Source of the DNA: Marsupella aquatica
Lineage: Eukaryota; Plantae; Marchantiophyta
Assembly (NCBI GenBank): GCA_973895155.1
Contig: OZ316891.1
Coordinates: 24,427,899-24,491,898, forward strand
DNA: 64,000 bases
Direction of reading: 5' to 3'
The position numbers were made by a program, and so were the translations under genes. Shown piece by piece: positions 3,991 to 58,250 of the stretch (position 1 is its first letter; the number at the start of each line of letters is the position of its first letter). The notes below the pieces were generated by a model that was not told the DNA's origin, did no database searches, and saw nothing but the letters and a program-made list of their open reading frames with translations.

Positions 3991-4339
3991 TGTGCCCGAA
4001 ACTCAGCGACGCCGCCGACATAGACTTAATTCACACCCACAGTCAAACCCTATGTCGGAGTCCACTCCGACATTGTTTTGGTTCGGACAATTAGTAATGT
4101 CGGCTGCCTCTCTGACCATCGTGGTGCCCTTTCTAACCATCTTGGCGCCCTCTCTGAGATATCCTTGGAGTGTTGTTCCATCTCGGCTGAGCTCGCCAAG
4201 ATGAAAACATACCCAGCAACGTGTACAACATAGCATATCAAATAGGAGCCACATTAAGAACGTTTGGATGACACACTTTTTATTAAACTTTGTACTTTAC
4301 AACGATGTTGTCTATCTCAATTTTCTGAACTAAATTCCA

Positions 4340-5147
4340 CTAGGCTGCGTCTCCATCTTCCATCCTCTCTACAGGGTAATTGTCTGGCAGACAAGGTCCA
4401 CAACAATCTTTTGCCGCATTGATGTCTATAAGTGCAGGGTCAAAGTTCAGTACGCCGCCTCCAGAAATACGCTCCATGTAGATAATGATATATACACCAC
4501 AATTGTAATCATCCCCTTGACCTGGAATGTTATCTCGGTAAATGCGTGGCCATTCTAAAGGACATAACAAGGTACGACCCCGCAAGATGGAGAGGTCCGA
4601 AAGAAACTGAGCTACTTTGAACACTTCTGTGCCATCCTGTGCTTTGGGCACAAGCGGATCAAGTAAATGCAGTTGCCGCAAGGCAGTATCAACCACAACT
4701 AGTACCCAGTGTTTTGGCCGGTAGACGGGGATTAAAACGTACTCGTGCTCCCACATTTGAATGCCCCGCCAATATGCCAACGCTGCGTTGAAGTTATATT
4801 TCGGAGATGTCATCACTTGGTAAAAATGTGTTGGCAATAACATGGCCTTGGGTTTATGAAGGGTTTGTGCTCTTCGTTCCAGTAAAGCAATGTAAGCATT
4901 GATGACGTTGCAAGTGATCCATTTTTTGGCCTCAAGCATTTTAAATGTGCCCTCGTCAAGTGCACGTCCTCGATTGTCACTATGACCTCTTTTTGGTCCG
5001 CCTTGGGGTCCAATGCCTTCTATACTATCGCCAAAAATTTGGATGGTTGCTGTTGTGCGGGCACTCCTTTGTTTGCAAGCCCCACCTCTTTCACTCCTGC
5101 CCGGGGAGTCAGCCCCTCATTCACTGGTTGCTCAGGTCTCTCCTGAG
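4340..5147 (-). pseudogene. Ulp1/peptidase C48 SUMO protease domain (frameshifted), MULE-1 cargo
   Basis: WITCNVINAY, IPVYRPKHWVLVVVD, LLDP and QGDDYNCG (His-Asp-Gln-Cys set); split over ORFs 4813-5013 and 4340-4939; paralog at 25776-26576. Confidence 0.9.
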
Positions 5148-5175
5148 CTGCAATGAAGGTAAATTCATTCAAACA

Positions 5176-5558
5176 TTACTCTTCGGAACTGGAGCTTGAT
5201 AATCTTATACTTACATGGTGAGTTTGGAGACTGTCACTTCCTACCGAGCTACTCTCATCCGATTGAGCTTCTTTTGCCCTATCATCGACAAATTTGAGAG
5301 TTTTCCTTTTTCTCTCTTGTACACAGCGAGGCACTATTTCTTCATGATAGGTATCAGCAGCGTAGCACGGAAGGGTTAACTTCTGCGGCGAGAAATATGC
5401 CAAAGCTTCCTCCCACGCGAGCTTGACAAGCCGTCTGTCCTGGCTGTCCCATTCCGCTGTAGCTGACTCAATAGTCCTGTCGGGAACTGCTACTAAGTTA
5501 TACTTAAATTCAATCAAATAATGTATTGCGCCCAAAATAGACGTAAACAAGAAGGTAT
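5176..5558 (-). CDS. Conserved exon of unknown function between the MTase-like and Ulp1 regions
   Basis: Strong similarity to ORF 26604-26948 (FKYNLVA.PDRT.ESAT.EWD.QDRRLVKLAWEEALA). AG acceptor at 5560-5559 is phase-compatible with the GT donor at 6732. Confidence 0.65.
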
Positions 5559-5586
5559 CTGTCGGGGAAGGTAGTCGACATGGATC

Positions 5587-6511
5587 GACGGATCTCGGAG
5601 AGGCCAGCCGAGATCACTCTTCCTGAGACGGATCTCGTAGAGGCCAGCCGAGATGACTATTCCTGAGATGGATCTCAGAGAGGCCAACCGAGATTGACTA
5701 TTCCTGAGACAGATCTTGGAGACGCCAGCCGAGATGACTCTTCGGTACACGGATCTCGGAGAGGCTAGCCGAGATGACTCTTCGGTACACGGATCTTGGA
5801 GAGGCCAGCTGAGATCACTCTTCCTGAGACAGATCTTGTAGAGGCCAGCCGAGATGACTATTCCTGAGACGGATCTCAGAGAGGCCAACCGAGATTGACT
5901 ATTCCTGAGACAGATCTTGGAGACGCCAGCCGAGATGACTCTTCGGTACACGGATCTCGGAGAGGCTAGCCAAGATGACTGTTCCTGAGACGGATCTCAA
6001 AGAGGCCACCCGAGATTGACTCTTCCTAAGACGGATCTTGGAGAGGCCAGCCAAGATCACTCTTCCTGAGACGGATCTTGGAGAGGCCAACCGAGATGAC
6101 TATTCCTGAGACGGATCTCAGAGAGGCCAGCCGAGATGACTATTCCTGAGACGGATCTCAGAGAGGCCAGCCGAGATTGACTCTTCCTAAGACGGATCTT
6201 GGAGAGGCCAGCCGAGATCACTCTTCCTGAGATGGATCTCGGAGAGGCCAACCGAGATGACTATTCCAGAGACGGATCTCAGAGAGGCCAGCCGAGATTG
6301 ACTCTTCCTGCAACGGATCTTGGATAGGCCAGCCAAGATCACTCTTCCTGAGACGGATCTTGGAGAGGCCAGCCGAGATGACTATTCCTGAGATGGATCT
6401 CAGAGAGGCCAGCCGAGATTAACTCTTCCTGAGACGGATCTTGGAGAGGCCAGCCGAGATCACTCTTCCTCAGACGGATCTTGGAGAGGCCCGCCAAGAT
6501 GACTCTTCCTG
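5587..6511. repeat. 40-bp tandem satellite (~23 units) with higher-order structure, in a MULE-1 intron
   Basis: Unit GACGGATCTCGGAGAGGCCAGCCGAGATGACTATTCCTGA, period 40-41 bp. Confidence 0.95.
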
Positions 6512-6732
6512 AGTTGCATGTAGAGGAATGAATCTTGGCAAGGTCCGCCAACATGCATCTCAAGTTAGGACTTGCCCTCGCTTGTAGAGGAGGCCAGACA
6601 CTATGAATGTCAGCGAGGTCAGCCGACATGCATACATATCGGCGAGGCCGCTGACTTGTATCCCTCTATTGTCAACCATTGCGACGAGCAAGCAAATATG
6701 AAATGAACAACGTCAAACGCCAGAAAACTTAC

Positions 6733-9700
6733 ATGTCGTTGGGAGTACTGCCGGCTTTTTCTTCTTGCGCTTTTCTGGATTGGCTTTTGAACGGACCACC
6801 TCTTCCTCCTCCGGGGAGATCACTCCAACCAGTTGTGCTAGTTGGTCTTGCGCACAAGTTCCGAAGTGAGGATAGGATTCAGTCCCAAACACCATCCGCC
6901 CGCAATTTTCACCCGCCTTGAATATTGCCCCAAACTGTGCGTTGAAAGTGAGGATAGTTGCCCCAGGGTGTGTTGTATATTCGATGATACATTGGAGCGT
7001 TGCTGGCGACAATGTGCCCGCAAAAGGATCGTTAACCTGATTCTTCTTGGATGTATAGTTCATTAGCCCATTCCTACTCTTCATATCGAGCTTTGCACTA
7101 ATTGGTGCCACATCGTCCTTTGGGCATATCTCCACAGCAGATTGAAACCCCCACAGGTCTAGCTTGAGATATTCGCTCTGGATCGGCCAAACATATTCAG
7201 AGGTCAGACTTCCTCAGTTTAGGATAGTAAGTCATTGGAATAAAAAATAAATGAAGAAGTAGGTAATTGATGGGACTTACTCGCTTCCCAGTCCTACCAT
7301 CGTAGGTGGGTGTGTCGTTCCAGATAAAGAAGCTTTCTTTCAACCCCCAGTTGGTATTCTCGTAAACTAATGCATCATAAATGCAAGTTGAGTGCCAAAG
7401 CGAACCACTGTGCACGATGGCAAACAGTCCTTTGGAATCAAGGACATCTCGAGCAAACTCCTGAACCTGGTTCAAGTCGTCCTCCCGGAACGAATTCCAC
7501 AACGGGGTGGACTTACCCTCGACCATACGTGTGTCTGTTCCCATATGTATCATAATTAAATCTGCACCAGTCTTCACTCGCTTCCCCCCTTTTCTCCAGG
7601 CATTTTGACGCAAACCTTCCCGCAATAGCTTTCTGCACCATGAGATCAATTTACTAACTACAGGGGGTTCGGTACCTTCTTTAGCCGCATCAAAAAAAGT
7701 TGTAAATAGATTTGGAGACCACCTAAAATACATGTCTGCTCTGGGAAGACATGGTATTGGCATAAGGACGCCTTACTCCTTCCAACTCTATGTTATCCTC
7801 TTCTCCAAGGGCCTCTTCATCCTCCTCATTTTCCAATGTGGGGTCAGGTTGGATGGTTGTGGGCGGAACCTCTCCAGTGCCGGGCGGGGGAGGCGACTCA
7901 GTGGGGGAAGGAAGAGGAGGAAATTCCTCGTCACGTGCTTTGCTTGGGCTCCCTTTGGGAGCTCTGGGTCGCCTAGTTTGCTTTCTTTTTAAGGCCTTTT
8001 CCTTTTGCCGTGACAGTAATGGTGGCCGGTAAGGCACAAGAGAGATATCAGACAAGCGCCCTTTGTCTCCGGATTGTCCTTTGTCCTCATCCTCTCGCTC
8101 CTCTTCCTCTTGCTCACCCACATCATCCTCACCTTGCTGCTCGTCAGTCAATTCATCTTGTACTTCAGGAGCCTCATGCGGAGGCAAGTCAAATTCTTGC
8201 AGTGGAGCCTCGTCTGGACCCAACTCAACTATTGGTTGTTTATCCTTGTGCCCTGGACCCTGCAAAACCCCTGGACCGTCCTCAACTGCTGCCTTTGTAG
8301 CCGGCTCTACACCCTTGCTCTTGATAGAATCAGGTTCCGTTTGGATCTCTGCATGACTTGCATAGGATGCAAATTGATGAGCTTCATGATGGCAACTGTA
8401 TCTCGGCGAGCCTCGCCAAGATCGGGTTCATTATATGCAAGCAACTTATTACTCAACTAATACTTCATCTCGGCGAGCCTCACCGACATCTGGACTGGAC
8501 CAGACACTTAATCTCGGCGAGCCTCGCCAACCCAGCCAATGTTTTTTCCAATGCAAGCCACCACCTGATTCGAAAGGAATTGAGTAATACCTGATGGGAT
8601 CTTTGTTGGAGTGCTTATAGAATCTGACTGACTGGCGGATTGTTCCTTGTCGACCTTCTTCTCGCCTCCTTCCTTTCGGGCCTTTTTCCCATCATAGGCT
8701 GGGTCCATTGGGATTATGGCCTCCAACGCTATTGCCTGGGGCATAGAGTCCATCAATTGTCGCAGCTTGGATATATCGTAGTAATTTGTAGGCTCCTGTT
8801 GGTCCTTGAGCTTCATTGCACACTCCTTCTCAGCGTCATCGATAAAAGTATTCTAGTCACGGTATTCCATATACCATGGGCAGTTTTGACGTTCCCAATC
8901 GCAGACTACTCTGCCATTAGGAATTTGGCCATCACATGGATACATGCTAAGGCTCCCTTTCGGCTCCATCCAAGATGTGAGTGCCCATGGCAGCTCTTTC
9001 AATACGGATGCATTCATGTTCTCCTGATTGATTAGAAATCTTGTCACGCACCTCTTTGTTCGCTTTTTCCACAATTCTTTTAACAAGACCGTGGCCTTTC
9101 CGTCAATCCAAATTTCCCCGCCTAGTTTCAGTGATTTCTCTTGCACATAAGCTCGATAAAGCCTTCTGTATAGCTCTGCAAATTCCTCCTCTGTCCCAGA
9201 AAACTCATGGTACATCTGTCTTTGGTAGGCCTTTGCAGCAAAATCGGACAAAATCACACAACCAACGTGGTCAATGTAACACCACATTGACCAGACCGCT
9301 AACCAGGATCTAATTGCAGCATCACCATTGCTATGTGGATGGTGATACATACTCTTCTCCTCCTTCGTTCCAAAATGAGCTTTCAATAGCTTTACTCTGC
9401 ACTCTGCAGTTACCCAAGCCCCAGCAAACAAGCGGACCCTGTCCAAGCCAACCTGTACATTCATCACACCCTGCTTGGCATCCTTTGACAACTTGTGATA
9501 CAGCTGCCGACATACCGGCATGAACTGGTCTCCATTGGCCGGATTCACGCAGGCCGCAAGCTTGGGGAACTTGTTGTCCCAGGCCTTGCATGCAACAATA
9601 ATCATTGCCTCCGTCTCCTCCTCAGTTCTCTTCACACTCCACGGGTGCCCACGAGCTGCGTCTTGTGCCATCTCCTTGGAGATATTGATTCGTCCCGCTT

Positions 9701-10718
9701 CAATGTTTGACCAAGACATGATGTACACAACGGCTTCTTTTGTCATATTCTTCGAGTACCAAGTCTTCCCATGTCCTCGATTTCGGGCCTTCATGAAAGC
9801 CTCCATTGTCTCCTTTGACATGAGCGAACTGTACTCCTCCAATGGAGTGTTCAATAGCTTTGCAACCCGATCAGCGTCATTAAACCAGGACATCTTTACG
9901 ACAGTCGCACTTATCCTGAAAATGACAAACAGTACTCATAGCGGCAATTTCAGAGAGGCTCTCCAAGATGGCACACAAGGTTTACACAAACGGGTACTAA
10001 TCACATTTTGCAAAAAGATGCGCATTGCTTGCTCAACCTTCTTGAATCCGTCCTTCCCAACGTTCAAAAGAGAGAATCTGACGCACGGATGGTATTGCAA
10101 TTGATCCGGATACTCAGAAGCAACTGCGGACCAGGCTGTGTATCTGTGGTTTCCATCAAAAACCCAAAACATCTTGTCCTTAAGGACTTTGAACTCCTCT
10201 GATGCATCGCACTCTTGCTCAAACTGTTCATTGAGTTGAGTCCATAGAGGGTCCCAAAATGGCTTGAAGTCTGTCACTGTCTGCGTTTCTCCAATTTCAT
10301 TGAACTCAGTAATGTGGAACTCGTTGAGCTTCACAACATAGCCGCTCTCTTTGAATCCTTTTTTTAATTTTGCAACCGACTCATCCTGAAGATTCCTCAC
10401 TGCCTCCATTGGCATGAGCCGGCACAAGGGGATCTGGGGTGGATCCTTACTAAACTTTGTCTCATACTTGGAGACGATAGACTCCCAGGCTCCCTTCTCA
10501 GCAATATCAGCCAATTATGCCGCTCCAATAGGCTCAAATGATATCTGCTTTGGCTCAAACTTCCTCCTAGAGTCGACTGACTCCATAAGTGGACCACCCT
10601 GTGAGCGCGTCAGTTGAGACGTGACTGGCGAAGGAGACTTGGATCATGGTTTCTTACTCCGCTGAGAAATTTGGCTGTCGGCAGGTCCAGCTCCAGTCGA
10701 GTCTTTCCTCTTTGGCAT
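6733..10718 (-). pseudogene. Multi-exon MULE-1 cargo gene: ParB-like N-terminal domain, helical region, acidic/Pro linker, degenerate beta-class N4/N6 DNA methyltransferase-like domain
   Basis: FWVFDGNHRYTAW (ParB-type DGxHR). ADLIMIHMGT..FARDVLDSKGLFAIV..FFIWN and LQCIIEYTTHPGATILTFNAQFGAIFKAGENCGRMVFGTE match the layout of N6_N4_Mtase motifs. In-frame stops near 10645 and 10516; collinear paralog in MULE-2. Confidence 0.7.
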
Positions 10719-11309
10719 TTAGATTACATGAGAAATGAAAGAGTTATTACTCGGCAATAGCTCGACCTATAAACCTGACAAGATCTTAGCGAGCCCCGCC
10801 GAGAGAGCCAGTTTTCAAGGATACGCGGGGTCCAGCCTATCACACATTTGATTCATCTACAAATGGATTTTACATATCAAGAAAAAGGGGGAGCCAAGAG
10901 AAAAACCTGAGAGAATCACCAACGTTCACGGCAAATCACTGTCGCAAATGCTCACAAGAAAATGTTGCCTAAACGCTCACGAAGAAGCTACCACACGCTC
11001 ACTGCCTCAAAACACCAACGCAATCCAGTAGACACAATAACAGGGTTGCACAGGAGAGTTTACCGTGAGTGGGACGACTGAAGAAGAGCAGGAACAACGC
11101 GGATGTGAGCGCGGAGAAGTGAGAGATTGCACAAGACCAATATGCAAAGATTGAGGAAGAGCACAGATTAGAGCGCGAACGAGTAAGGGACGCAAAAGAG
11201 TGAGGTAGAGTGAGAAGGTCCGGGGATTAGTGATAAAGACGAGCGCCAAACCTAAGGTGTCACACCGTGGAAGAGTGACGAGGAAGGAACGACATCCACT
11301 TCAAGGAAT

Positions 11310-11420
11310 AACGTACCGCACATACTGCACAACACTAAAGTACGCAATAGATACGGGAGATCCTAACTATATTTCAATACGTACATGTTAACGGCCCAAA
11401 CAAGAAAGTACACAATGCTA
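11310..11420 (-). promoter_or_regulatory. GTAC-rich upstream module of the ParB/MTase-like gene
   Basis: ACGTACCGCAC..GATACGGGA.ATCC.AACTATA..GTTAACGG.CCAAACAAGAAAGTAC also found at 49600-49710 and, inverted, at 57450-57630. Confidence 0.55.
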
Positions 11421-11729
11421 ACGCGAGTACTGACCACCACTAGTACGAGAGAGTTTAGGGTACATTTAGGGTACAATTAGGGACTTTGGCCTACAACTCA
11501 AATGAGTCCGAATGTAGGAGACCCTTGTTGTCATTTCATTCCGAGGCCTACTAAGACGTGTCAACATCTCGGTGCGTCAGCTCAAAGAGGAAATGGTTGC
11601 CCACATGCATTATCATTTGGGTGGCTTAACTAAAAGAGGAAATTGGGGTTAAGAGAAGGGGGAAGAGCACAAGTCAACAAGATCAAGGAGGGTTTGTTGG
11701 AGGAGACTTAATAAAGGCGGCCAATTATG

Positions 11730-11750
11730 TTTAGGGTTTAGGGTTTAGGG
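11730..11750 (+). repeat. Short interstitial plant telomeric repeat / telo-box (TTTAGGG)x3
   Basis: TTTAGGGTTTAGGGTTTAGGG; similar runs near 24600, 24901, 25136, 44341, 49758 and 57129. Confidence 0.85.
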
Positions 11751-11835
11751 TAAAATATGAGAAGTAGAAAAAAGTCCAACACTCTAGCGAACTTCACGGT
11801 AGAAAAGTACGCTTCTTGGGTCAAAAAGGTCGCCA

Positions 11836-12430
11836 GCCTCTCGGAGACCCTCTCTGAGATGGAGTCGTGGGCCAGATGACACCACTTATGGACCCTGTTA
11901 ACAGTTTCAAAGGGTTAGCTACAACATACACTGTCTCTCAGAGACCCTCTCAGAGATGAAATTAAGGGTATTCTATTTCAAAGGAAGGACTCAAAATGGT
12001 TCTATCCAACATCCGATGTCAGAGACCCTCTCTGAGATGGAGTGGTGTGGCCCGAACGGCCAGACGACAAAAATTGTCAATCGCGTCTTGGGTGGAAAGG
12101 GAAGCGAGATTGCAACCCAATCGCTCGGAGACCCTCTCTGAGATGGAGCCGTGTGCCCCAAGTGGCCAGAGAGCAGTTCTCCCAGATCGCATATTGGGTC
12201 AGAAAGGTCGCCAAATGAGACCCAGCCTCTCGGAGACCCTCTCTAAGATGGAGTCGTGGGCGTAATTTGGCCAGATGACACCACTTGTGGACCCTGTTAA
12301 TAGTTTCAAAGGGTTAGCTACAACATACACTGTGTCTCTTAGAGACCCTCTCCGAGATGAAATTAAGGGTATTCCGTTTCAAATGAAGGACCCAAATTGG
12401 TTCTATCCCACATTCGATGTCAGACCCTCG
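11836..12430. repeat. Internal duplication (~190-bp copies at about 11836-12030 and 12225-12420) plus palindromic motif copies
   Basis: Near-identical GCCTCTCGGAGACCCTCTCT.AGATGGAGTCGTGGGC..GACCCTGTTAA.AGTTTCAAAGGGTTAGCTACAACATACAC blocks. Confidence 0.85.
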
Positions 12431-12639
12431 CCAAAATACAAGGATGAACCCAAAAGTGCATGCAAAAACTGACCGTACAGTACTTTTCAATGTTTTTACA
12501 ATGTAATTTTGTATGGATCGCGTGTCCGTACAAATCTACCATCTCAGAGAGGCTCGCCGAGTACAAATGCTGTTGCCCAAATGACCCGAGTCCATCTCAG
12601 AGACCCCCACCGAGAATAATTTAGGGTGGAAACTAAATG

Positions 12640-13447
12640 TCAAAGACCCTCGCCGAGTAGGATTCTAGGTAAAAGTAAATGACACTCAGCAACCGAGGAA
12701 GTCCCTAATCCACCACAGAGAGGCTCGCCAGATAGCGCGACCGCATGCCAGAGACCCTCGCCGAGTAGGATTCTAGATAAAAGTCTATGAGAATCCATCT
12801 CAGAATCTCGGAGACCCCCGCCGAGAATGACTTGGGATGAAAAGTAAATGACACTCAACGACCAAGGAAGTCCCTAATCCACCACAAAGAGGCTCGCCAG
12901 ATAGCGCCACCGCATGTCAGACACCCTCGCCGTGTAGGATTCTAGGTAAAAGTCTATGAGAATCCATCTTCGAATCTCGGAGACCCCCCCCCGAGAATGA
13001 CTTGGGATGAAAAGTAAATGACACTCAACGACCAAGGAAGTCCCTAATCCACCACAAAGAGGCTTGCCAGATAGCGCGACCGCATGTCAGACACCCTCGC
13101 CGAGTAGGATTCTAGATAAAAGTCTATGAGAATCCATCTCAGAATCTCGGAGACCCCCGCCAAGAATGACTTGGGATGAAAAGTAAATGACACTCAACGA
13201 CCAAGGAAGTCCCTAATCCACCACAAAGAGGCTCGCCAGATAGCGCGACCGCATGTCAGACACCCTCGCCGAGTAGGATTCTAGGTAAAAGTCTATGAGA
13301 ATCCATCTTAGAATCTCGGAGACCCCCGCCGAGAATGACTTGGGATGAAAAGTAAATGACACTCAACAACCAAGGAAGTCCCTAATCCACCACAAAGAGG
13401 CTCGCCAGATAGCGCGACCGCATGTCAGAGACCCTCGCCGAGTAGGA
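12640..13447. repeat. 169-bp tandem array (4 full units plus partials) upstream of the MULE-1 transposase
   Basis: GA(G/C)ACCCTCGCCG recurs at 12751, 12920, 13090, 13259 and 13428. Confidence 0.95.
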
Positions 13448-14379
13448 AGTCGAAAGGCTATTTATTCATCCTTCAAGTCAGGCATATTTGCAAAGGGGAT
13501 TATAAGCCACACGACGGAAGAAGAAGAAATGTTTTAGGCAAGGCCGGACGGAATCTTGGAGAATATACTACATCCCTAGAGTTTGCATGTACCTTCTTGG
13601 CGGCTGCTGGCAAATATGTACCTTGTACATGTGTAGAATCTGTACCTTCTTGGCGGCCGCTAGCAAATAGGTACCTTCTTTGTGGTACAATTGTTATATG
13701 TACGCTCCGGATTCTACAATCGTTATATGGTATGCACGTTGTCCAGAACGGTATTCTTGGCGTAAAGTATGGGTACTTTAACGTCTGATGTACCGCCCAA
13801 GTTCTAAGCCTGAAAGTGCGGTATTATTGGCATAAAGTGGTACGAAGATTTTAACGTCTGATGTATAAAGCCGAAGGCCTGGGGACTAACATTCCCAGTG
13901 TGGATTTGGGACACATGGCTTCTCTTGTGATAATCCGATCAGTAACCGGGGATGTTGTTGTTTTTCATCAGATTGAGGGAGACAGTGTTCGAGTCACTAA
14001 GGAGCATGAAGTAGCAAGCCAATTTGGTTTGAAGGTAGGGGATTTCATGATTTACGAGGAGAGAGAAGATGGGCTATCCACTTCTGCTGAATCCAAAGGC
14101 GATGAAGATGAGCGAGAGTGGTATCTGAAATGTGGCGTGTCCTATACTATCTGCAAAAAGAAAGCAAGTTCATGCAATGTTAGTGAGGGTCTTGGAGATT
14201 TTGTGCACTCCCCACAGATTGATGAACCGGGTGAATTATGGAACAATACACCGTGTCAGAAATCGTCCCAATTTTGGGAGGACATTCACCGAGTTGGTAG
14301 ACCCCACTCAAATTCGTCGCCAGTGTGGCAGGATGTTGGAGAGGCAGATGAGCTAGTGAAGGAGACACCTCGACCCAAC

Positions 14380-14960
14380 GCAATCAATCTCAGAGGGGGT
14401 CTTCGACATGGTGAACCTTCTCGATTGAGTACACCTCGGTCAAATTCATTCCATATGTGGGAAGATGTTGGAGATGTGGATACACCAGTGAAGGAGAAAC
14501 GTCGATCAAGTGCATTCAATCTCAGAGGGGGTCTTCGAGATGGTGAACCTCCTCGGACAAGTACACCTGGGTCCAATTCATTCCAAATGTGGGAGGATCT
14601 TGGAGATGGTGATACACCAGTGAAAGAGAAACCTCGATCAAGTGCATTTAATGTCAGAGGGGGTCTTCAAGATGGTGAACCTCCTCGGACAAGTACACCT
14701 GGGTCCAATTCATTCCAAATGTGGGAGGATCTTGGAGATGGTGATACACCAGTGAAAGAGAAACCTCGATCAAGTGCATTTAATGTCAAAGGGGGTCTTC
14801 GAGATGGTGAACCTCCTCGGACAAGTGCACCTGGGTCCAATTCATTCCAAATGTGGGAGGATCTTGGAGATGGTGATACACCAGTGAAAGAGAAACCTTG
14901 ATCAAGTGCATTTAATGTCAGAGGGGGTCTTCAAGATGGTGAACCTTCTCGGACGAATAC
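14380..14960 (+). repeat. 120-bp (40-aa) coding tandem repeat in the transposase N-terminus
   Basis: Repeated LRDGEPPRTSTPGSNSFQMWEDLGDGDTPVKEKPRSSAFNV in ORF 13861-14901. Confidence 0.9.
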
Positions 14961-46699: not shown

Positions 46700-48170
46700 G
46701 CGAAGTTCCATTCCGGCGAGGGTCACTACATCCGGTTTCAGTGCCATTTCGGTGAGGGTCGTTGACATCCAGTTTCAGTGCCATTTCGGCGAGGGTCGTT
46801 GACATCCGGTTTTAGTGCCATTCCGGTGAGGGTCGCTGACATCCGGTTTCAGTGCCATTTTGGCGAGGGTCGCTGACATCTAGTTTCAGTGCCATTTCGG
46901 CGAGGGTCGCTGACATCCGGTTTCAGTGCCATTTTGGTGAGGGTCGTTGACATCCGGTTTTAGTGCCATTCCGGCGAGAGTTGCTGACATCTGGTTTTAG
47001 TGCCATTCCGGCGAGGGTCGCTGACATCCGGTTTTAGTGCCATTCCGGCAAGGGTCGCTGACATCTGGTTTCAGTCCCATTTTGGCGAGGGTCGCTGACA
47101 TCCGGTTTCAGTGCCATTTCGGCGAGGGTCGCTGACATCCGGTTTCAGTGCCATTTTGGTGAGGGTCGTTGACATCCGGTTTTAGTGCCATTCCGGCGAG
47201 AGTTGCTGACATCCGGTTTTAGTGCCATTCCGGCGAGGGTCGCTGACATCCGGTTTCAGTGCCATTTCGGCGAGGGTCGCTGACATCTGGTTTCAGTCCC
47301 ATTCCAGTGAGGGTCGCTGACATCCGGTTTCAGTGCCATTTTGGCGAGGGTCGCTGACATTCGGTTTTAGTGCCATTTCGGCGAGAGTTGCTGACATCCA
47401 GTTTTAGTGCCATTCCGGCGAGGGTCGCTAACATCCGGTTTCAGTGCCATTTCGGCGAGGGTCGCTGACATCCGGTTTCAGTGCCATTTTGGTGAGGGTC
47501 GTTGACATCCGGTTTCAGTGCCATTTTGGTGAGGGTCGTTGACATCCGGTTTTAGTGCCATTCCGGCGAGAGTTGCTGACATCCGGTTTTAGTGCCATTC
47601 CGGCAAGGGTCGCTGACATCCGGTTTCAGTGCCATTTTGGCGAGGGTCGCTGACATCCAGTTTCAGTGCCATTTCGGTGAGGGTCGCTGACATCCGGTTT
47701 CAGTGCCATTTTGGTGAGGGTCGTTGACATCCGGTTTTAGTGCCATTCCGGCGAGAGTTGCTGACATCCGGTTTTAGTGCCATTCCGGCGAGGGTCGCTG
47801 ACATCCGGTTTCAGTGCCATTTCGGCGAGGGTCGCTGACATCTGGTTTCAGTCCCATTCCAGCGAGGGTCGCTGACATCCGGTTTCAGTGCCATTTTGGC
47901 GAGGGTCGCTGACATTCGGTTTTAGTGCCATTTCGGTGAGGGTCGCTGACATCCAGTTTCAGTGCCATTTCGGCGAGGGTCGCTGACATCCGGTTTTAGT
48001 GCCATTCCGGCGAGGGTCGTTGACATCCGGTTTCAGTGCCATTTTGGCGAGGGTCGCTGACATCTGGTTTCAGTCCCATTCCGGCGAGGGTCGCTGACAT
48101 CCGGTTTCAGTGCCATTTTGGCGAGGGTCGCTGACATCCGGTTTCAGTGCCATTTTGGCGAGGGTCGCTC
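46700..48170. repeat. 37-bp tandem satellite (~39-40 units)
   Basis: Unit GACATCCGGTTTCAGTGCCATTTCGGCGAGGGTCGCT, contiguous, no spacers. Confidence 0.97.
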
Positions 48171-48497
48171 AGATCCGACAAATGGCGAATGTCTCCAAGG
48201 TGAGTAGCGTTCACGAACACTACATCTTGGAGACCCTCGCTGAATTCCAACGGTGCCGTTTGGATGTCGGCGAGGCCGCTGGGAGGGAAAAAAGACCACA
48301 CCAATAGTACGATAACGTAAGCTTTTTTATTATTGAAAAATGTCGTACAAAATTAGTCCATGATACTACCCCTGACCTCATTACTACGTGATGAGTTCAA
48401 GTCATGACATGACCTAGTGGCCAGTGGACCCTATCGACAATGCTATCCGCGATGACCTCCTATGCCTTCACAGTCAAATATCACTAGAATAAAGCCC

Positions 48498-49184
48498 TTA
48501 GCCACTGTCCGGATTGTTGCTCGGCAATTTTTCTACATTGTCACACCATAAGATTGGGGTTAACCTGTTCTCCACCCAGTCCTGGACTCTTCCTAGCACA
48601 TCTCCATCGAAGAACTTATCATACAGATCCCTCTCAATTATCTCCGTCCTCCAGACGTAGTTTGCCACCCAAGACTTGAGTGATGTAACTGACATCATAG
48701 AGAGGGCATCAATAGGCGGAATTTGTCGTAAGAGAACACGGAACGTACACGCGGTTGAGTGACGATTCCAATGTCGGTTATCGTCCATGTTTTCAATGAC
48801 GTCCTTCACCACTTTTAACGCTGCCCATCCCTTGGAGTGAGTCACGAGGAATCTCCATTTCCTGCTAACTCTGGACAATATGCGCATGTTGTCGATCGTC
48901 TTGAAGGTAGCATCATCATCAGTGCCATGTGCATTTGCAGACTCAAATGCATTTCTAAGTAGAGGCCAAACATGTCCCTCTGTCAGCATATCCGGGAGGC
49001 CAGGGATGAGACTCTGCCTTTTTGCTTCTTCTGCTTCCTCCGGAATAGGCTCCCCAATACTCCCCCATATTGAGAGCCGATCAAAATCAGCTTTCAATTT
49101 CAGCTCAGTAATTGTCGCCGTAAACTTATCAAGGTGTGTAGCGCACTTTTCATGATAATGCCTCTTCGTGTATGATCCTTCCAT
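48498..49184 (-). CDS. F-box-like small protein type A (MULE-2 cargo)
   Basis: SLIPGLPDMLTEGHVWPLL..LSRVSRKWRFLV; collinear with 42199-42927. Confidence 0.68.
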   Translation of the reverse strand: MEGSYTKRHYHEKCATHLDKFTATITELKLKADFDRLSIWGSIGEPIPEEAEEAKRQSLIPGLPDMLTEGHVWPLLRNAFESANAHGTDDDATFKTIDNMRILSRVSRKWRFLVTHSKGWAALKVVKDVIENMDDNRHWNRHSTACTFRVLLRQIPPIDALSMMSVTSLKSWVANYVWRTEIIERDLYDKFFDGDVLGRVQDWVENRLTPILWCDNVEKLPSNNPDSG

Positions 49185-49519
49185 GTTGGAGAGCCGCTTG
49201 AAGCAAGTTTAGCCGCTTGAAGCACCCGTGAGATGAAGATGACACCCAACAGATTGAACACAACAACCAACCAACCAAACAAGCGAATGAAGAATAGAGA
49301 AAGTGCCCTCCTCTTTATAACGACAGTGACATTGACATATTGGTTTCGACGGTCTCCACCTGCGAAGTCTGCGGGTTGATCTTGACCCTGTAGGGGCTGC
49401 GCGCCGGTCGCGCAACGGGCGTAGAACGTCTGCCTTCGTGGGGAGGTTCTCCCTAAGAAATGAACAGCGATGTCATTTCTGCCCAGTGCGATGAATGTCA
49501 AAGTGTAGAAATTCAACCA

Positions 49520-49790
49520 AGCGCAGGGATAAGTGAGAAGGACGTTGAAAACCCTAACGAAGAGTGAAGAGGAAGAGGAAGAGTAAGGAAGAAGGGAGCA
49601 CGTACCGCACGTACCGCACCGCACAAAACTATGTCATGGATACGGGACATCCCAACTATACTTGACAACGTACATCTTGTTAACGGACCAAACAAGAAAG
49701 TACGCAAGGGAAGTACGCAAGGGTCTAGGATTTACGGCCCAGTATAGGGGGTACGTGTTTAGGGTTTAGGGTTTAGGGTAAACCCTAAAC
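49520..49790 (-). promoter_or_regulatory. GTAC-rich upstream module with telo-box repeats (copy of 57420-57770, inverted)
   Basis: About 270 bp of clear inverted similarity with 57420-57770; upstream of the F-box type A gene. Confidence 0.6.
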
Positions 49791-49972
49791 GGTCCAAATG
49801 TCAAAGACCCTCGCCGAGAATTGATAGTGAAAGATAGGAAGGATCTCATGTCGCCAAGTATTTATTACTCAAAAAAGTCGTACAAAATTAGTCCATGATC
49901 TCTAAATCTGAACCAGGTGTGGCGTACTCCTGCATATTCTATACACTAAACCGATAATGACATGAAGTGCAC

Positions 49973-50701
49973 CTAAAAGTTGTCACGATTGACACTTACA
50001 CCTTGATCAAGTCTTTCCTGAACCTGCTCAATGTACCAATTATCAAGACGAGTCCTTTTCCAAGCATCTACTCGTTCTTGCTGAACACCATATATCGACA
50101 GATAACAGTCCGCTTCCTCCGAATCACATAATAACCAGGAATCAATCCTCTCATTTAAGATATCATCAGCCAACCGAGCCCAAACATCAATCGATGGGAA
50201 CGCTCTCATTGACTCACGAAAGAAGTGAGGTGTCAATTCAGGCCATCTTGTGGCACAAAATATCACAGCAGTAGTCATTGCAGCCCATGCTATGGAGTGT
50301 GTTATCAAATATCTCCATTTCTTGTTGATATGCGCAACAGACCGCACCATCAGGCACATATTCCTCACTGGAGCATCCACAAGCACAACATCTTCCAACA
50401 TTGATCGGATCCGGGGCCATATGTGCAACTCCACAAGATCATCAGGCAATCCCGGAATCAAGTTACCGGCTGGAGGGCGACATCGTAGGGGATAACGAGA
50501 GGAGGGGAGATTCCAGATGCGAGCACGGTCTTGTTCTTTACTAGCAAGAAGCGTCTGCAATTCCGATGTAAGCCTTTCTTGTGTCCTATCAATCACCATC
50601 TCACGTCCGCCTGCACTAGGATCCATAGTTTCGAACAAAGCAACAACCCTCATCCCAAGGACCCAAGCGGATTTAGGGTCGAATCTGAGCCTCGCCAACA
50701 T
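49973..50701 (-). CDS. F-box-like small protein type B (MULE-2 cargo)
   Basis: NLIPGLPDDLVELHIWPRI..VAHINKKWRYLI. Confidence 0.7.
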   Translation of the reverse strand: MLARLRFDPKSAWVLGMRVVALFETMDPSAGGREMVIDRTQERLTSELQTLLASKEQDRARIWNLPSSRYPLRCRPPAGNLIPGLPDDLVELHIWPRIRSMLEDVVLVDAPVRNMCLMVRSVAHINKKWRYLITHSIAWAAMTTAVIFCATRWPELTPHFFRESMRAFPSIDVWARLADDILNERIDSWLLCDSEEADCYLSIYGVQQERVDAWKRTRLDNWYIEQVQERLDQGVSVNRDNF

Positions 50702-50943
50702 AAATCCGTAACCCTATACTTATAACGGTCATATTATAAACCCTAACCCCCTAACCCTAGGCCCGCAACCCTGAAGTCCATGTCGGCGAGGGTCGCCAAG
50801 ATGACTCAGGAGTTACGTCGGCGAGGGTCGCCAAGATTAGATGACTCGGCGAGGGTCGCCAAGATTAGATGACACGGCGAGGGTCGCCAAGATGATCTCC
50901 TGAAGAAGGAGACAATGTTAGCGAGGGTCGCCGACATACAATG

Positions 50944-53900
50944 TCAGACGATATTGGCATTTGCTACAAGGCCGCGGACCTCAGTTAGAGTCAAGATAGG
51001 TTGGTTTACACATTGATCCGTGTCAATGTCCCTTTTACAGATGTTTGCAAAGCACCAGTACAAGTGCTTGCACGGGAAGTAGGCTCTTCCCATCGACTCC
51101 CTATACATGAAATCCTTGCAGGAGCAACTTGGGAAGACACAGATCTGGACGCAATGTACTGAAGTTTGCCCCCTGCTAGTGTTGTTCACCATGAGCCTTA
51201 TGCCGGTAGCATTCCCTGTTTCAATTCTCCTCATTGACGTGCACACAATGGCCTTGGTCTTAGCATTTTGGATACGTGCTAATGCATCCTTGGGGGGGTC
51301 TGACCTCCTTCGCCTTGCCTGGCCATTGCGGCGAGTACCATGATCGTCAGGCCTTGTAGGATCTGGCCGCTCTGGGTATGTGTTCAAATCCATGATGATG
51401 TCGCCAACACTCACTACCTCATTCATAACATCACCACCAGAAATGACATCCACTCCATTGTTGTGCAGGAAAATAACCTTTGCTTCTGTAAGATTAGTAC
51501 CACGAGAGACCGAAAACTTTGAAGGCAGTGGTGGTAGCACGCCGGTAATGAAAGGCAAAGAGGATTTTGTGCAACACTGGTTGTTCGGACAAAACCAATA
51601 CGGATATGGAACACCTGGTTCATTAAATTTACTCCCCGCCAGCCAACAAATACCAACAACACCCAATCCGCTCACTTTCAATCCTGCCTCTCTAATAAAT
51701 CGAGCACATACTCCCCGTTCCTTGCCTTTGAACGCACCTCTACAACCGGGACTCTTACCACATGTTGAGATGCGGGCCAGAAATAACGTCCCTGGCACCA
51801 AATCAGTTTCTTGAACATGTCTTCTGATGGGCTCCAGACGTGGGGTTGACCTTGTCGTCCGTTGGAGAGGTTCCACAATGACAACTTCAGGCTCGCCCGA
51901 GCCACTACCGCCATCAGAAGACAGATCCACAACTTCAGGATCTGTGCTTTTTAAGGTTGTGTCCCTGTTTGCAACCCCCTTGAACTTCCTCTTCTTTGGT
52001 CTCGTTACCAGAACAATGTCAGGCCTGTGTGAATCTTCTACTACCACATGAGCGCCAGATACGGCCTTCCCGCACTTCATAGAAACCGTTTCTACATCTC
52101 CGCTAAGTGGGTCCGCCGACGAGAACTTACGCAATTCTGGTTGAGTTATAACTGTGTTCAATTTTGAACAGAAAGATTCCACATTCCCAACAGCAGTAGC
52201 GTCTCGAAGTCGGAGTTCAAATAGGCTCGGTCCCCGCCCTTTCCTCCCACTGTGTTGGTAGTGCTCCAAAGATGCAACCTGGCTCAATGCTCGAGTTGCA
52301 TCTAAGTTACAGGACTGTACTAACCCAACCTTTCTATTAGAGGACCATTTCCGCATGACCGCATGCACCGACTCTGCCCCGCTGTGGTTAGGCATCAGCG
52401 CAGCCTTTTCTCTGTCCATCTCCTACAATTTCCAAGAAGAATGTCAATACAATTGGAAACATATCTCGGCGACCGCCGCCGATATTTGACAGAAAGCGTT
52501 ACAGACAGAGGTCGTCCAATTGAACATCCCTTCAACTGACCCCATGTCAGCGAGCTTCGCCGAGATTTGACAGATTTCATGCATATAGAGGAAAAGCGTT
52601 AGACACTTACGAGTCTCAAAAAATTTCCCCATTGAGAAAACCGAACAATCCACCAAGACATCCACATTGTGAGCTCCTTCGCTTTTCCGGGTAGCGCGTT
52701 GCCCTCGCTCCACCACGTCTTAAGCTTCTCAAAAACTCGAAATGCAAGAACTATGTTGCCGGCATGTCGAAGCGAATCTAGAATTTCCTTATGCTCAAAT
52801 CTCTTATGTGGGACAATGTGCTTCTGCACCCTCTCCACTGATTGGGCCCAGTGAAACGCATCAGAACTCTCTCTATGGGTATTTACCTTTCCATCCCAAA
52901 ATTCATTGTGGATTGCATTCCACCCAGCAGCAGCATTATCAGCCATAAAGCCACAAAATTCAACATTGATAAGCCCATGTTCTCCACACACCCTCCTCAT
53001 GACCTTCCATGCAGTTTGTAATGCCGCACTATCTTCTGAAACCAGCTCACAAACAAAGATTGTGCACAGGCCCCGATAGAAATGGTCATACACGTGTGCT
53101 GACATGGTGCACCATTTGTTGTCAAGTATATGATGCATCACATCAGACATCACCCATGAATGCTCGAGATCCCCGCTGCATTCTTCGAACAAGGTCCACC
53201 CCGGAACCAGGACCTTCTGTACTCATTTTAAAAATGTGCGGTCGCTCGTCTGTTCCCACGTTCTGGGATGGGAACAAAACACTTTGGATAAACGGAAAGG
53301 CAGTCACCTTCCGCATCTCCAGTATCATGTTAAGATCAGATGACACATGACTGTACTTCTTGATGCTCCTGATCATAGAGCGAAAAACGGATTCATCACC
53401 GAGGATGGACAACATTTCATTAAGGTCTCTTGCCTCCTCAGATGTCACCATTTCAGCCACTGGGTCTTCAAGGATATCTTTAAGTTTCTGTATTGCCTCG
53501 CCCTTGATAACAGACGGCATAGCAGTTGGACTCCTCTTCAGCTCCACCTCCACAAGATTGCGCACAACTGATCGTTGATCCTTGTTATGCGTGAACATTG
53601 CAGGATGGGTGTGATTTCCTATATGCATCGCAACACGAGACTTGTGACAATAATTCACGTCATCCTTGGTTGGAGTGATATAGTACATCTCACTTGGGCA
53701 TCGAGCTATACACCTGGGAGGCCTCTTGCAGTACGTACAAATTACACTCGACGGGGTAACATCGCGTCCAACAGGGAAAGGTAGCTCATTTGTGCCTGCT
53801 CGATCTCGGGTCCACTTTGCAGAATTGTGCTCTTGTCGCTGTTGAAAATTTTCACAATCCTCATGCAGACATCGCAGAGAACCCAAACACTTGACACTTT

Positions 53901-55121
53901 GGATCTTGTACGAGTGACTATTGTTGTTCAGCTTTGGGCCAATGTTTGCTCCTGTCTCAATTAACCGGCTCCACATGTAACAATCGTTCTTGCGCTCCAT
54001 CCCAAAGAAGAAACAACCCTTAGAGTATGGACCAGTAAAGGGTGGCAACTCAAAAATATGGTCTCCATCATAGAATTCTGGCAATCGCAGAACTCTCTCG
54101 GGCAATTTCATGCTCAAAATCTTACAAGCAACTTGTACACAACGAGAGGTCCCTTTTCCGTGCAACATGGCATGAACAACACTGACAAGGAACTCATCCT
54201 TCCATACCGAATCACCATCTTGGAGACCCTCGCGGAGGATGGATGCCTTTGAACGAGGTGTCTCCTTTGGTTGACGATAACAAGCTCCACGATCCTCCCA
54301 GAATTGGGATGTGTTTGACTGAGGTGTATTCATTGGTGAAGGTTCACCATCTCGAAGACCCCCTCTGACATGAATCCCACTGGATCGAGGTGTCTCCTTT
54401 GGTGGAGTATCACCATCTCCGCGATCCTCCCACATTCGAAATGAATTCGACCGAGGGGTACTCGTCCGAGAAGGTTCTTCATGTCGGAGACCCTCTTTGA
54501 CATGGTGTGCACTTGGTATGCACCCCGTCTTTCTGCAGAGAATATAAGACGCGCCATACTTCAGGTACCACTCTCGCTCATCTCCATCTCCTTTGGATTC
54601 AGCAGACGTGGACAACCCGTCCTCGCTCTCCTCATAAATCATGAAATATCACCCTATTCATTAAAAGTGTATTTTATTTTGTTCACTTTTAGGCCTCAAA
54701 ATGTACACTTTTTGGTCTCTAAATGTACACTTTTTAACCCCAAAAGGTATACTATAGTACAATAGTCTACACCTAAATAGTCAATTGTAAACTTGAGGGA
54801 GAAAAAATGAGCTTTACTAGAAGGAGTCTCATCCTAGTTCATTTATAAAAGATGAACATGGTGGTATGTCTGATGGCCATCACTTTTATTTCTTGCCCAA
54901 ATGTACACTTTTTGAAAGCCAAATGTACACTTTCTATTGCCCAAATGTTCACAAATTGAATAATAATTCACTTTTAATGAATAGATTGATAAATCCCCTA
55001 CCTTCAAACCAAAACGGCTCGCTACTTCATGTTCCTTAGTCACTCGGACAATGTCAACGTTAGAATTATGAAAAACAACTACATCCCCCGTTAAAGATGT
55101 GATAATCACAAGAGAGGCCAT
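50944..55121 (-). pseudogene. MULE-2 Mutator-like transposase (GCM-like, DDE, SWIM)
   Basis: Same motifs as MULE-1 (FMADNAAAGWNAI, DAFHW, GAESVHA, CSCKDF..PCKHL). Intron 52610-52423; 5-bp deletion frameshift near 53175; MITE in the first exon. Confidence 0.9.
54648..54990. mobile_element. 343-bp MITE with ~22-bp TIRs and 4-bp TSD AAAT
   Basis: ATCACCCTATTCATTAAAAGTG .. CACTTTTAATGAATAGATTGAT; AAAT at 54644-54647 and 54991-54994; empty site seen in MULE-1 near 14035-14052. Confidence 0.88.
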
Positions 55122-55489
55122 GTTTCCCGAATCCACATAGGGAATGATCTGACATCCCTTAAAACGACAAACTTTGAGGCTCAGCGTTAACGCACCTGTA
55201 CGTACCAGTTACGGCCAAGAATACCGTTCCGGACAACGTGCGTAGAGAAATCGTATGACCCAGAACGATACTTATAACGATACAACGTGCGTAGAATGAG
55301 CGTATGACCCGCAACGTACTTATAACGAGAATTGTACCGCAAAGAAGGTACCTAATTGCCAGCAGCCGCCAAGAAGGTACATTTCTGCAATGTGTGGATG
55401 TGGTACATTCTGCACGTCGTGGTCTTGAAAGTCCCATCGTGCGGGCCCACAATCCCTCGTGCGGGCCCGATCCCCTCTTTGCCCTACAT

Positions 55490-56320
55490 CAACTTTTTAT
55501 CCATACTACTCGGTGAGGGTCTCTGAGATCTATTCGGGACTCCTGGGGCCCACACTCCTGTGCAAGCTCGAGTTTCACAGTAGGAAATTTGTTGACTTTT
55601 CAACATTGACTGTTCAACATCGACTCTCCGAGTCGGAGCATCATCGACTTTTTATCCCTACTCCTACTCGGCGAGGGTCTCTGAGATCTATTCGGGACTC
55701 CTGGGGCCCACACTCCTGTGCAAGCTTGAGTTTCACAATAGGAAATTTGTTGACTTTTCAACATTGACTGTTCAACATTGACTCTCCGAGTCGGAGCATC
55801 ATCGACTTTTTATCCCTACTCCTACTCGGCGAGGGTCTCTGAGATCTATTCGGGACACCTGGGGCCCACACTCCTGTGCAAGCGAGAGTTTCTCAGTAGG
55901 AGATTTGTTGTTTTTGCAACATTGACTGTTCAACATCGACTCTCCAAGTCGGAGCATCATCGACTTTTTATCCCTACTCCTACTCGGCGAGGGTCTCTGA
56001 GATCTATTCGGGACACCTGGGGCCCACACTCCTGTGCAAGCAAGAGTTTCTCAGTAGGAGATTTGTTGTTTTTGCAACATTGACTGTTCAACATCGACTC
56101 TCCGAGTCGGAGCATCATCGACTTTTTATCCCTACTCCTACTCGGCGAGGGTCTCTGAGATCTATTTGGGACTCCTGGGGCCCACACTCCTGTGCAAGCG
56201 AGAGTTTCTCAGTAGGAGATTTGTTGTTTTTGCAACATTGACTGTTCAACATTGACTCTCCGAGTCGGAGCATCATCGACTTTTGATTTCGTCTCTTACT
56301 TGGCGAGGGTCTCTGAGATG
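55490..56320. repeat. 158-bp tandem array (5 units plus partial) upstream of the MULE-2 transposase
   Basis: GAGGGTCTCTGAGAT at 55515, 55673, 55831, 55989, 56147 and 56305. Confidence 0.95.
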
Positions 56321-57419
56321 GATTTCGATGTAGGATTCCCAGATTGCCTCCTTGGTGCAGGTCTACTTCAGAGTTTGGTGTCGGTTGTTTGGAGTGCATA
56401 TCATACTCGGCGAGCCTCTCTGAGATATATTCGAGCATTGTAAAAGAGAGAAAACGCCGGTCTGTACGGATATTTGCAAAAAAAATTGGATTCATGGTAC
56501 GGAGAAGCGTTTCTAGTTCCATAATCCCATTTGGGCGAGGGTCTCCGAGATATATTCGAGCATTGTAGAGGAAAAAACGCCCAATTTGGAGTTGTCGAGT
56601 CATTTTGTACGGATAATTGTAAAAAGTTTATGGATTTATGGTACGGAGAAGTGTTTATAGTTCCATAGTCCCATTTTGACGAGGGTCTCCGACATCTTGG
56701 GTCCCATGGCGGGGGACTAGTGCCTCTCAATTCCATCTCGGAGAGGGTCTCCGAGAGACACGATGCTTGATCTGCCTTACCTTTCCTCCCGTGATATGGT
56801 CCAAGAGTTTAGAGGCATTGCCATTTCATGCACACTACTCCTTCTCGAAGAGGGTCTCTGAGAGTACAAGGTGTCTGAAGTTCTTCATCTCCTAGATAAA
56901 GTGAAGACATTTGGGGCACGCCTTTCTATGTTGGTGAGGGTCTCTAACATGGAGCAGGGGTCTTTTGGATTTAGATTGTCAACTTCCTTGTCCACAATCC
57001 TCTTTTGCGAGTGTCTCAAAACAGGATGACTGCCAGATGTGGCACACCACGCCATCTCGGAGAGGGTCTCCGAGATCTATCGGTGCTGTCTCATTGCAGC
57101 TTTGTATACCCCACCCAAGGGTATATAGGTTTAGGGTTTAGAGGTCTTTGTGAATCCCGCTATCCATTCTCGGCGAGGGTCTTTGAGATTTGGACTCGTA
57201 TTGTGGGCCCCCATTCCCTCTTTGGGACGAGGCTCCGAGATGTTGACACGTCTCAGTATTGGCCCGCTATCCATTCTCGGCGAGGGTCTTTGAGATTTGG
57301 ACTCGTATTGTGGGCCCCCATTCCCTCTTTGGGATGAGGCTCTGAGATGTTGACACGTCTCAGTATGGGCCGCAATTAATTGTTGGCGAGGGTCTTTGAG
57401 ATTTGGACCCTAAATCTCA

Positions 57420-57770
57420 TACCCCCGTACTGGGCCGTAAACCCTAGAACCTTACGTACTTTCTTGTTTGGTCGCGTACTTTCTTGTTTGGCCCGTTAAT
57501 TAACAAGATGTACGTTCTCTAGTATAGTTCGGATCTCCCGTATCCATGTACTTGTGTGCGGTGCGGTACCGGGGATCTCTTGTATCCATGGAGTACTTCC
57601 GTGCGGTGCGGTACGTGCGGTACGAGGGTCCTTCCTTACTCTTCCTCGTCACCGGTGCGGTACGTGCGGTACGAGGGTCCTTCTTCCTTACTCTTCCTCA
57701 TCACTCTTGCTCTTCACGCTTTGTTAGGGCTTTCAACGTCGTTCTCACTTATCCCTGCGCTTCCTCACTC
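57420..57770 (+). promoter_or_regulatory. GTAC-rich upstream module of the MULE-2 ParB/MTase-like gene (separated from it by the inversion)
   Basis: Homologous to 11310-11420 and 49520-49790; followed by a CT-rich 5'UTR-like stretch. Confidence 0.55.
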
Positions 57771-58250
57771 TTCATCATTCACTCCCCGTCTCATTCACTC
57801 CCCGTTATTCCTCACGCATCCTCGCTCTTCCTAGGTCCCCTCCGCTCTTCATCCCAGTCTTCCAATCACGTTGGCTTTCCTCTCTTCCACTTATTCTCGG
57901 CAAGTGTGGCCGTGTGCCCTGGTTTGCGAAGGTGTTTTGAAGGCTTCACCTTGGCGGCGGTCGAGTCTCATAGTTTCAAGCTCTGTGCTGGTTGGCAAAG
58001 GTGATTTGAAGGTCTCAGTTTGGTTTGAGCTCGGCAGCGGTCGACTCTCAAAGTTTCAAGCTTTGTGCTGCAAAGGGTGATTTGAAGGTCTCAGTCGGCG
58101 GTGGTCGAATCACTCTCAGCGGGTTGTAGTTTCAAGCGCGGCGCTTCACCCATCTCCGAGGTTGGATCTTTTGTTCACTGCATGACTGTCTACACGATTT
58201 GAAGGTATGTTGCAAGCTCGACATGTCAAAACTTTTGCTCGGTGGGGCTC

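Follow-up and report, generated by a model that had tools for sequence, protein, structure and literature searches.

A 23-bp near-palindrome repeated through two nested Mutator-like elements of the liverwort Marsupella aquatica is a likely self-recognition site of an element-encoded ParB-fold protein

We analysed a 64,000-nucleotide stretch of the Marsupella aquatica genome (the window; assembly GCA_973895155.1, contig OZ316891.1, positions 24,427,899 to 24,491,898 of the forward strand), in which an interrupted palindrome had been predicted to mark all non-coding DNA of a Mutator-like element (MULE). We found that the region is not one element but two nested, collinear Mutator-like elements of 18-20 kb, A and B, and that both carry many copies of a 23-bp dyad, which is likely the self-recognition site of a ParB-fold accessory protein encoded by the elements themselves. 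That some protein reads the site is very probable. We consider the chances about even that a ParB-domain protein binds the dyad as a dimer, coats the element in its introns, promoters and ends and shields or activates it, and that the methyltransferase-like domain of this protein is non-catalytic. Literature searches, which left most subscription papers outside, turned up no paper that deals with this motif or with a ParB-methyltransferase Mutator element of land plants. That ParB-domain accessory proteins bind and modify the giant transposons that encode them has been proposed in two algal genome papers, one of which names VANDAL as the only known case; the relevant passages of these papers give neither a site nor a test. 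The land-plant family gives a base-resolved candidate site, a conservation footprint and three candidate readers. If the reading is correct, plant transposons would have evolved self-recognition a second time and independently, here with a prokaryote-type fold and a conserved target, unlike the fast-changing target of VANC.

Sequence and geometry of the site

The dyad pattern TCTCGG(A/C)GA-NNN-TC(T/G)CCGAGA has 98 matches in the window at up to three mismatches, as compared to 0.06 expected and a maximum of 1 in shuffles, so the predicted palindrome is real. Exact copies of this 21-bp pattern are found at 16734, 46515, 56736 and 57055; the last three had been called perfect in the original prediction, and the 12-bp arms it described for the copy at 46515 are present. 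With an iterated, oriented profile and a threshold of 14 bits, we found 172 sites (0.05 in Markov controls), which fall into about 61 flank clusters by a rough clustering that merged a few unrelated contexts. The refined consensus is ATSTCGGMGA-GGS-TCKCCGASAT, a near-palindrome in which a flanking A...T pair extends the pattern to 23 bp, and information content drops to about zero beyond these bases, marking a sharp site boundary. The motif is CG-rich and sites occur in both orientations.

The geometry had been described as a fixed 9+3+9 arrangement with a variable spacer. The fixed length stands for the main class of sites: with at most one mismatch allowed in each half-site, all 30 pairs with a spacer between –6 and 15 have a spacer of 3. 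The sequence of the spacer, however, is not free, since it reads GGG/GGC or the complements in 82 of the 98 matches. When we scored only the outer 8-base half-sites at total lengths of 16 to 40, we found 142 sites in 59 contexts at length 23 and 18 sites in 17 contexts at length 22, with no more than 7 sites at each other length; outside the transposon family, the window has no site at length 22 or 23. The 22-bp sites form a second geometry that the description had missed, and in this class the centre is truly variable.

Distribution of sites within the elements

The 38.9 kb of family DNA contain all 172 profile sites, and the other 25,108 bp of the window (copia, 4.6-kb insert, both CACTA parts and left flank) contain none, which agrees with the absence from copia, insert and CACTA noted by eye. 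Within the family, non-coding DNA (17,653 bp) holds 162 sites; 19 of its 23 hand-drawn segments carry the motif, and the four that lack it are short introns. The remaining 10 sites lie in 1,240 bp of low-complexity repeat made of in-frame 132-bp units at the transposase N-terminus, and there are none in the other family exons, folded-domain exons included (19,999 bp). The motif is thus neither confined to non-coding DNA nor present in all of it, as had been claimed. The predicted intron copies at 8401, 16734, 29427, 29511, 29576, 52464 and 52545 are all present and lie inside GT-AG introns.

Most copies sit in tandem arrays, and most sites are kilobases from any element end. A claim that every satellite unit carries the motif is true of large arrays (13 of 13, with units of 28-240 bp, several of them unrelated) but not of small ones (0 of the 11 checked). 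Birth of the satellites by motif-to-motif duplication is unsupported: array ends fall at the motif in 9 of 20 cases, with 10.4 expected.

Conservation of the site

In two orthologous introns of A and B, sites are present at matching positions. The four orthologous site pairs in these introns are identical at 74 of 92 bases (80%), as compared to 65% at fourfold sites of 13 A/B exon pairs (n = 704); the DNA between or next to the intron sites, compared in three stretches, aligns like shuffles (0.26-0.79 of shuffles score as high). Across the 61 contexts, the arms change independently of each other at their two-state positions (Fisher p = 1.0 and 0.55), and the median single-strand DNA folding energy is only –2.6 kcal/mol. 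Together, the lack of covariation and the weak hairpins point to half-sites that are read in double-stranded DNA. For a dimeric-protein site, as had been proposed, we thus have indirect support from geometry, orthologous introns, independent arms and exclusion from folded-domain exons and other transposons; the original argument from a variable spacer was wrong for the main class.

Signs of the motif are also found in relatives. We translated the consensus in three frames, scanned 168 fetched proteins, and found six motif-shaped peptides as compared to 0.24 in 200 shuffles (maximum 3). Five are at expected places in three relatives with 47-62% protein identity: in P0005 (47%) the peptide is an intron read-through after the helical domain and agrees with the outer half-sites and length but not the centre, in P0007 (62%) it is at the transposase N-terminus, and in P0008 (62%) it is a read-through after the DDE exon. 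A match in P0081 is probably chance. Similar peptides occur in the same transposase N-terminal region of P0007, P0009 and P0010.

In 28 distant transposase loci (mostly about 30% identity, many redundant), we found no site at 10 bits and no tblastn match to the cargo genes. A de novo dyad search of 13 of these loci found no comparable repeated dyad, at a low power that gave a window segment only p = 2e-4. Near distant transposases (L017, L018 and L019), a dyad AGTGA-N2-TCACT occurs in 2-3 contexts and resembles the end motif of the window elements. No relative was found by middle-domain alignment scans of metagenome and viral contigs or by a transposase scan of viral contigs. In scans for the exact motif, there were 20 single matches in bacteria and 1 in viruses; we considered a bacterial donor site and read these matches as chance, as they lie under open frames of at least 213 aa at 59-74% GC with no more than two profile hits per locus.

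The ParB-methyltransferase-like protein

The N-terminal domain of the ParB-methyltransferase-like gene has 211 relatives at E ≤0.001, with named homologues of the gene from Riccia and Adiantum, and its [DE]GNHR motif is conserved in 95 of 101 pattern matches. Among the Atlas neighbours of this domain are clusters that carry ParB_N (11% of members). The Riccia homologue P0029 was modelled with a mean predicted local distance difference test score (pLDDT) of 53, and its ParB-like domain (about residues 135-310) is mostly at pLDDT 83-98. Foldseek matches this model best to ParB, Noc and sulfiredoxin (top probability 0.96, E 0.036), and VIA-align places KorB (Z 7.4, root-mean-square deviation 2.7, 95 residues) among many generic helical matches. 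The model of this homologue has the ParB N-terminal (CTP-binding) fold, which makes ParB, named in the original prediction, a reasonable candidate for the reader.

A 1207-aa Riccia homologue (P0166), to which the window exons align, joins ParB-like and N6/N4-methyltransferase-like domains in one large protein (PF01555 at E 5e-5, below the curated cut-off), and profile matches of the C-terminal domain include RsrI (E 0.002) and CcrM (E 0.03). An intact N4/N6-methyltransferase catalytic motif is (D/N/S)PP(Y/F). Here the motif is degenerate, reading HMGT and QMGS in the window and DLPT, DMPS, DMPT, DFPI and DVPF in the Riccia and Adiantum homologues, unlike the TSPPY described for Marchantia DN4MT1. 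The 40 open reading frames (ORFs) that we scanned with Pfam gave no match to the ParA family or to VANC domains (DUF1985/DUF287). A longer homologue of the methyltransferase exon was not found, which is weak evidence, and for this exon the Atlas has only hits of ≤0.80. Transposase and ParB profiles had no informative match among PDB sequences. In Adiantum, a homologue of the ParB domain (P0097) has a NIF-type phosphatase domain at its C-terminus, so that effector domains may be exchangeable; this gene model could be a fusion artefact.

We propose that selection keeps the site because a protein, the ParB-domain protein, would read both half-sites in double-stranded DNA. Sites would be found wherever coding allows and be multiplied by local tandem duplication, as VANC targets are. 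Dense occupancy, possibly through ParB-like clamp loading and spreading, would shield or activate the element against host silencing, and the fused domain probably no longer methylates and would act as a binding module or decoy. A more far-reaching version, which we regard as rather unlikely, is that non-seed land plants carry a eukaryotic parS-like system in which the transposon's ParB clamp loads at the 23-bp dyad and spreads along its own 20-kb element in a CTP-dependent manner; the dead methyltransferase would be an effector that marks the element as self, blocking silencing or joining ends, and the 22-bp sub-terminal sites would set a different binding mode at the ends.

Alternative explanations

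The transposase is the main rival reader, because the 22-bp class is sub-terminal and because the AtMu1 transposase alone can activate its family. Its GCM-like domain would bind the site, which would act as an internal or sub-terminal enhancer for end synapsis or self-activation; we find this unlikely. The WRKY/GCM1, DDE and SWIM architecture of MULE transposases is described in PMC1702500; in the window transposases, SWIM-type CxC..CxH and DDE-like motifs can be seen by eye, and Pfam and PDB sequence comparisons gave no WRKY/GCM1, MULE DDE or SWIM match. In a low-confidence model (pLDDT 44), the GCM-DNA structure 1odh appears at rank 8 with probability 0.47, and motif peptides are found in the transposase relatives P0007 and P0008. 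A homologue in the leafy liverwort Calypogeia fissa is 61% identical. Against the transposase, the element ends carry a repeated motif that differs from the 23-bp site, so that it has another site available, and the remoteness of most sites from any end and the lack of sites at the 28 distant transposase loci do not suit it. AtMu1 binding, as described, peaks at terminal inverted repeats and not at introns. Both readers could hold, with one site class each.

A host factor, or a different cargo protein encoded by the F-box-like ORFs or the exon upstream of Ulp1, is quite unlikely to be what the site recruits. Both elements keep these ORFs, at 59-81% identity, and a CG-rich motif could mimic a host regulatory site; however, Pfam finds no DNA-binding domain in them, and 23 bp is long for a host transcription factor. 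The AT-hook-like protein, which had been put forward as a reader, is an improbable one, as its ORF is present only in B, one of two motif-bearing elements, and the motif is GC-rich.

We also doubt strongly that the site is a neutral relic, an ancestral repeat spread by slippage and gene conversion without a reader. Most copies are in tandem arrays and sites decay freely by CpG deamination in these copies, as a relic would have it. In contrast, the site has a sharp 23-bp boundary across about 61 different flank contexts, sites are kept at orthologous positions while neighbouring DNA diverges, array ends are not enriched at the motif, and relatives at 47-62% identity show signs of it. A DNA or RNA hairpin acting as a cruciform or as a splicing or small-RNA signal, which would suit a palindrome with several intronic copies, is hardly credible given arms that do not covary and fold so weakly.

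Several observations weigh against the ParB-domain protein as reader. Bacterial ParB reads its site through a central helix-turn-helix, and no helix-turn-helix could be made out in the centre of the Riccia model, which is all-helical and of low confidence. The fold matches exceed E 0.001 and come from the homologue, not from the window's own spliced protein. Of the 17 listed 22-bp copies, 13 are within 650 bp of one of the four element ends, which suits the transposase, and AtMu1 offers a precedent for self-activation without an accessory protein, its transposase alone being reported to bind and hypomethylate its own family. Departures from the consensus are C>T or G>A in 267 of 511 cases; the window copies were therefore methylated and decayed, and there is no sign of lasting protection. 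The orthologous comparison consists of four site pairs only, segment borders were set manually, on the basis of ORFs and splice sites, when the motif was already known, and the peptide patterns were written after the peptides had been seen, making that test post hoc and protein-level only. The joint lack of motif and cargo in the distant loci may reflect decay or low sensitivity.

Comparison with known systems

In bacteria, ParB-parS, Noc-NBS, the KorB operator and F-plasmid sopC all use clustered palindromic sites, and the sopC sites lie inside tandem units. The window shares clustered palindromic sites and the ParB-type N-terminal fold with these systems but differs in having no ParA match, a [DE]GNHR instead of a GERR motif, a longer site and a eukaryotic transposon as its carrier.

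In VANDAL elements, VANC is described as binding a 9-bp motif that lies in non-coding tandem repeats (PMC5735166, PMC10398659). VANDALs are likewise Mutator-like elements with accessory genes and a family-specific motif in introns, intergenic and terminal DNA and tandem repeats. In contrast to the VANC motif, which is described as having one orientation and turning over between close families, the window site is a 23-bp dyad found in both orientations and common to A and B despite their 65% identity at fourfold sites.

In Ectocarpus, the 21.5-kb element Sola1-1_Ec32 encodes a 1104-aa protein with ParB-like and N4/N6 methyltransferase domains opposite the transposase, and the paper proposes that the accessory protein binds and modifies its own element and cites similar algal cases (PMC12477816). 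Compared by description only, both are DNA transposons of about 20 kb with the same domain fusion on the strand opposite the transposase; superfamily and host differ, the catalytic motif is degenerate in the window, and the relevant passages of that paper give no binding site. In Bostrychia, the ParB-domain protein PAG3 of Plavaka elements is proposed to bind adjoining inverted-repeat arrays (10.1101/2025.02.11.637652). The likeness, again by description only, is in 17-19 kb elements (PAG2/PAG3) with a ParB-domain accessory protein and tandem inverted repeats as its target. There, however, ParB is fused to a 2-oxoglutarate (2OG) oxygenase, the methylase is a separate gene and the arrays lie beside PAG3 only, whereas the window sites cover the whole element, introns included. 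The site would work like VANC targets and the proposed algal system and belongs to neither a VANC system nor a ParABS system.

The carrier elements and neighbouring sequences

Element A (about 18.5 kb by subtraction) runs from 3936 to 25159 and continues from 44564 to 41350, and element B (about 20.3 kb) is inserted into A and runs from 25160 to 31810 and from 58250 to 44565 (Table 1). By blastn, A and B share the order end, Ulp1, ParB-methyltransferase-like gene, divergent promoter, transposase, two F-box-like ORFs, end. MULE hallmarks are present: two pairs of 9-bp target-site duplications (TSDs) and four related ends that start with G. The end motif has 6 matches, as compared to 0.05 expected, at four places. 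Position 58250, which had been taken as an element end, has no end motif and is an approximate breakpoint of B. Because the right parts of A and B are now opposite in direction, we infer that an inversion, with its breaks at about 31.8-36.4 kb and 58.25 kb, split both nested elements. Contig loose ends at 41349 connect to the left flank of A. In four runs of three coded organisms, contigs covered 28-30 of the 30 bins between 41.3 and 58.3 kb and held many variants, consistent with a multi-copy family, the depth not being a copy number.

Table 1. Features of the window (TSD, target-site duplication; MTase, methyltransferase)
Feature	Position	Strand	Remarks
End repeat, motif CATCAGTTATCAGTGA.., distinct from 23-bp site	3936..3990	+	also 25160, 41350, 44565; begins with G
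Element A left and middle (end, Ulp1, ParB-MTase-like gene, transposase; copia inside)	3936..25159	+	TSD GGTCACAAA at 3927-3935; blastn collinearity with B
Element A right (two F-box-like ORFs, right end; now inverted)	41350..44564	-	TSD copy at 41341-41349, minus strand
Element B left (end, Ulp1, ParB-MTase-like gene), within A	25160..31810	+	TSD AGGAAAAAT at 25151-25159; minus-strand copy 44556-44564
Element B right (promoter region, transposase, two F-box-like ORFs, AT-hook-like ORF, end)	44565..58250	-	blastn collinearity with A
Ulp1 (Peptidase_C48) gene A	4343..5500	-	PF02902 E 1.6e-13 and 2.3e-22; copy B 25776-26950
ParB-MTase-like gene A	6716..10720	-	ParB/Srx domain 9990-10514, helical domain 8601-9915, MTase-like exons 6716-7772
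ParB-MTase-like gene B	27636..31810	-	5' end cut near breakpoint; 55-85% amino-acid identity to A by exon
Mutator-like transposase A	13901..24260	+	interrupted by copia 17803-23686; 83-91% identity to B
Mutator-like transposase B	50944-55150	-	
Reference perfect 23-bp site	46514..46536	+	12-bp arms at 46512-46538; others at 56735, 57054
Three intronic sites, ParB-MTase-like gene A	8400..8533	-	orthologous to 29426-29597 in B (alignment)
Intronic site, transposase A	16733..16755	+	orthologous to 52544-52566 in B (alignment)
Sub-terminal 22-bp sites 4000, 4052, 4139	4000..4160		similar clusters 25224-25414, 41431-42021, 44643-44803
40-bp satellite	5587..6513	+	23 sites
Divergent promoter region of A, 169-bp satellite	10721..13900		18 sites
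Transposase A low-complexity N-terminal repeat, 132-bp in-frame units	14151..15080	+	7 sites
Transposase B ORF repeat	54211-54520		3 sites
Transposase A 3' non-coding, 26/86/101/240-bp repeats	24261..25159		14 sites
92-bp satellite	27148..27577	+	9 sites
37-bp satellite	46704..48177	+	39 sites
Promoter region of B, 158-bp and 107-bp satellites	55151..58250		16 sites

Among the other cargo, the ORF upstream of Ulp1 (5121-5500 and 26511-26950), 81% identical between A and B, is probably its first exon, with splice sites read from the sequence and a GC donor in B. The F-box-like ORFs match F-box at E 0.015 only.

The copia element in transposase A is near-intact, with 175-bp long terminal repeats that are 97.7% identical. 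The same inversion would also have split a CACTA element (36.4-41.35 kb on the plus strand, 58.25-64 kb on the minus strand), with the 4.6-kb insert at the left breakpoint. The insert (31864-35541) has an ORF of 1037 aa that includes a long coiled coil and matches no curated Pfam family; we found no self-repeat in the insert, and its ORF is unrelated to the CACTA ORF at 38376. On the CACTA side, ORFs at 61811-63960 encode tandem BRCT domains (E 3e-12) and NSD-like PHD fingers, possibly a chromatin-reading cargo. Observed/expected CpG is 0.27-0.30 in CACTA DNA (36401-41355, 58251-64000), 0.55-0.9 in Mutator-like exons and often 0.8-1.1 in their non-coding DNA, a contrast that may reflect age or protection. 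Short runs of telomere-like AAACCCT are found in promoter and 3' regions of the elements (11454-11760, 24600-25150, 44341-44365 and 49760-49790).

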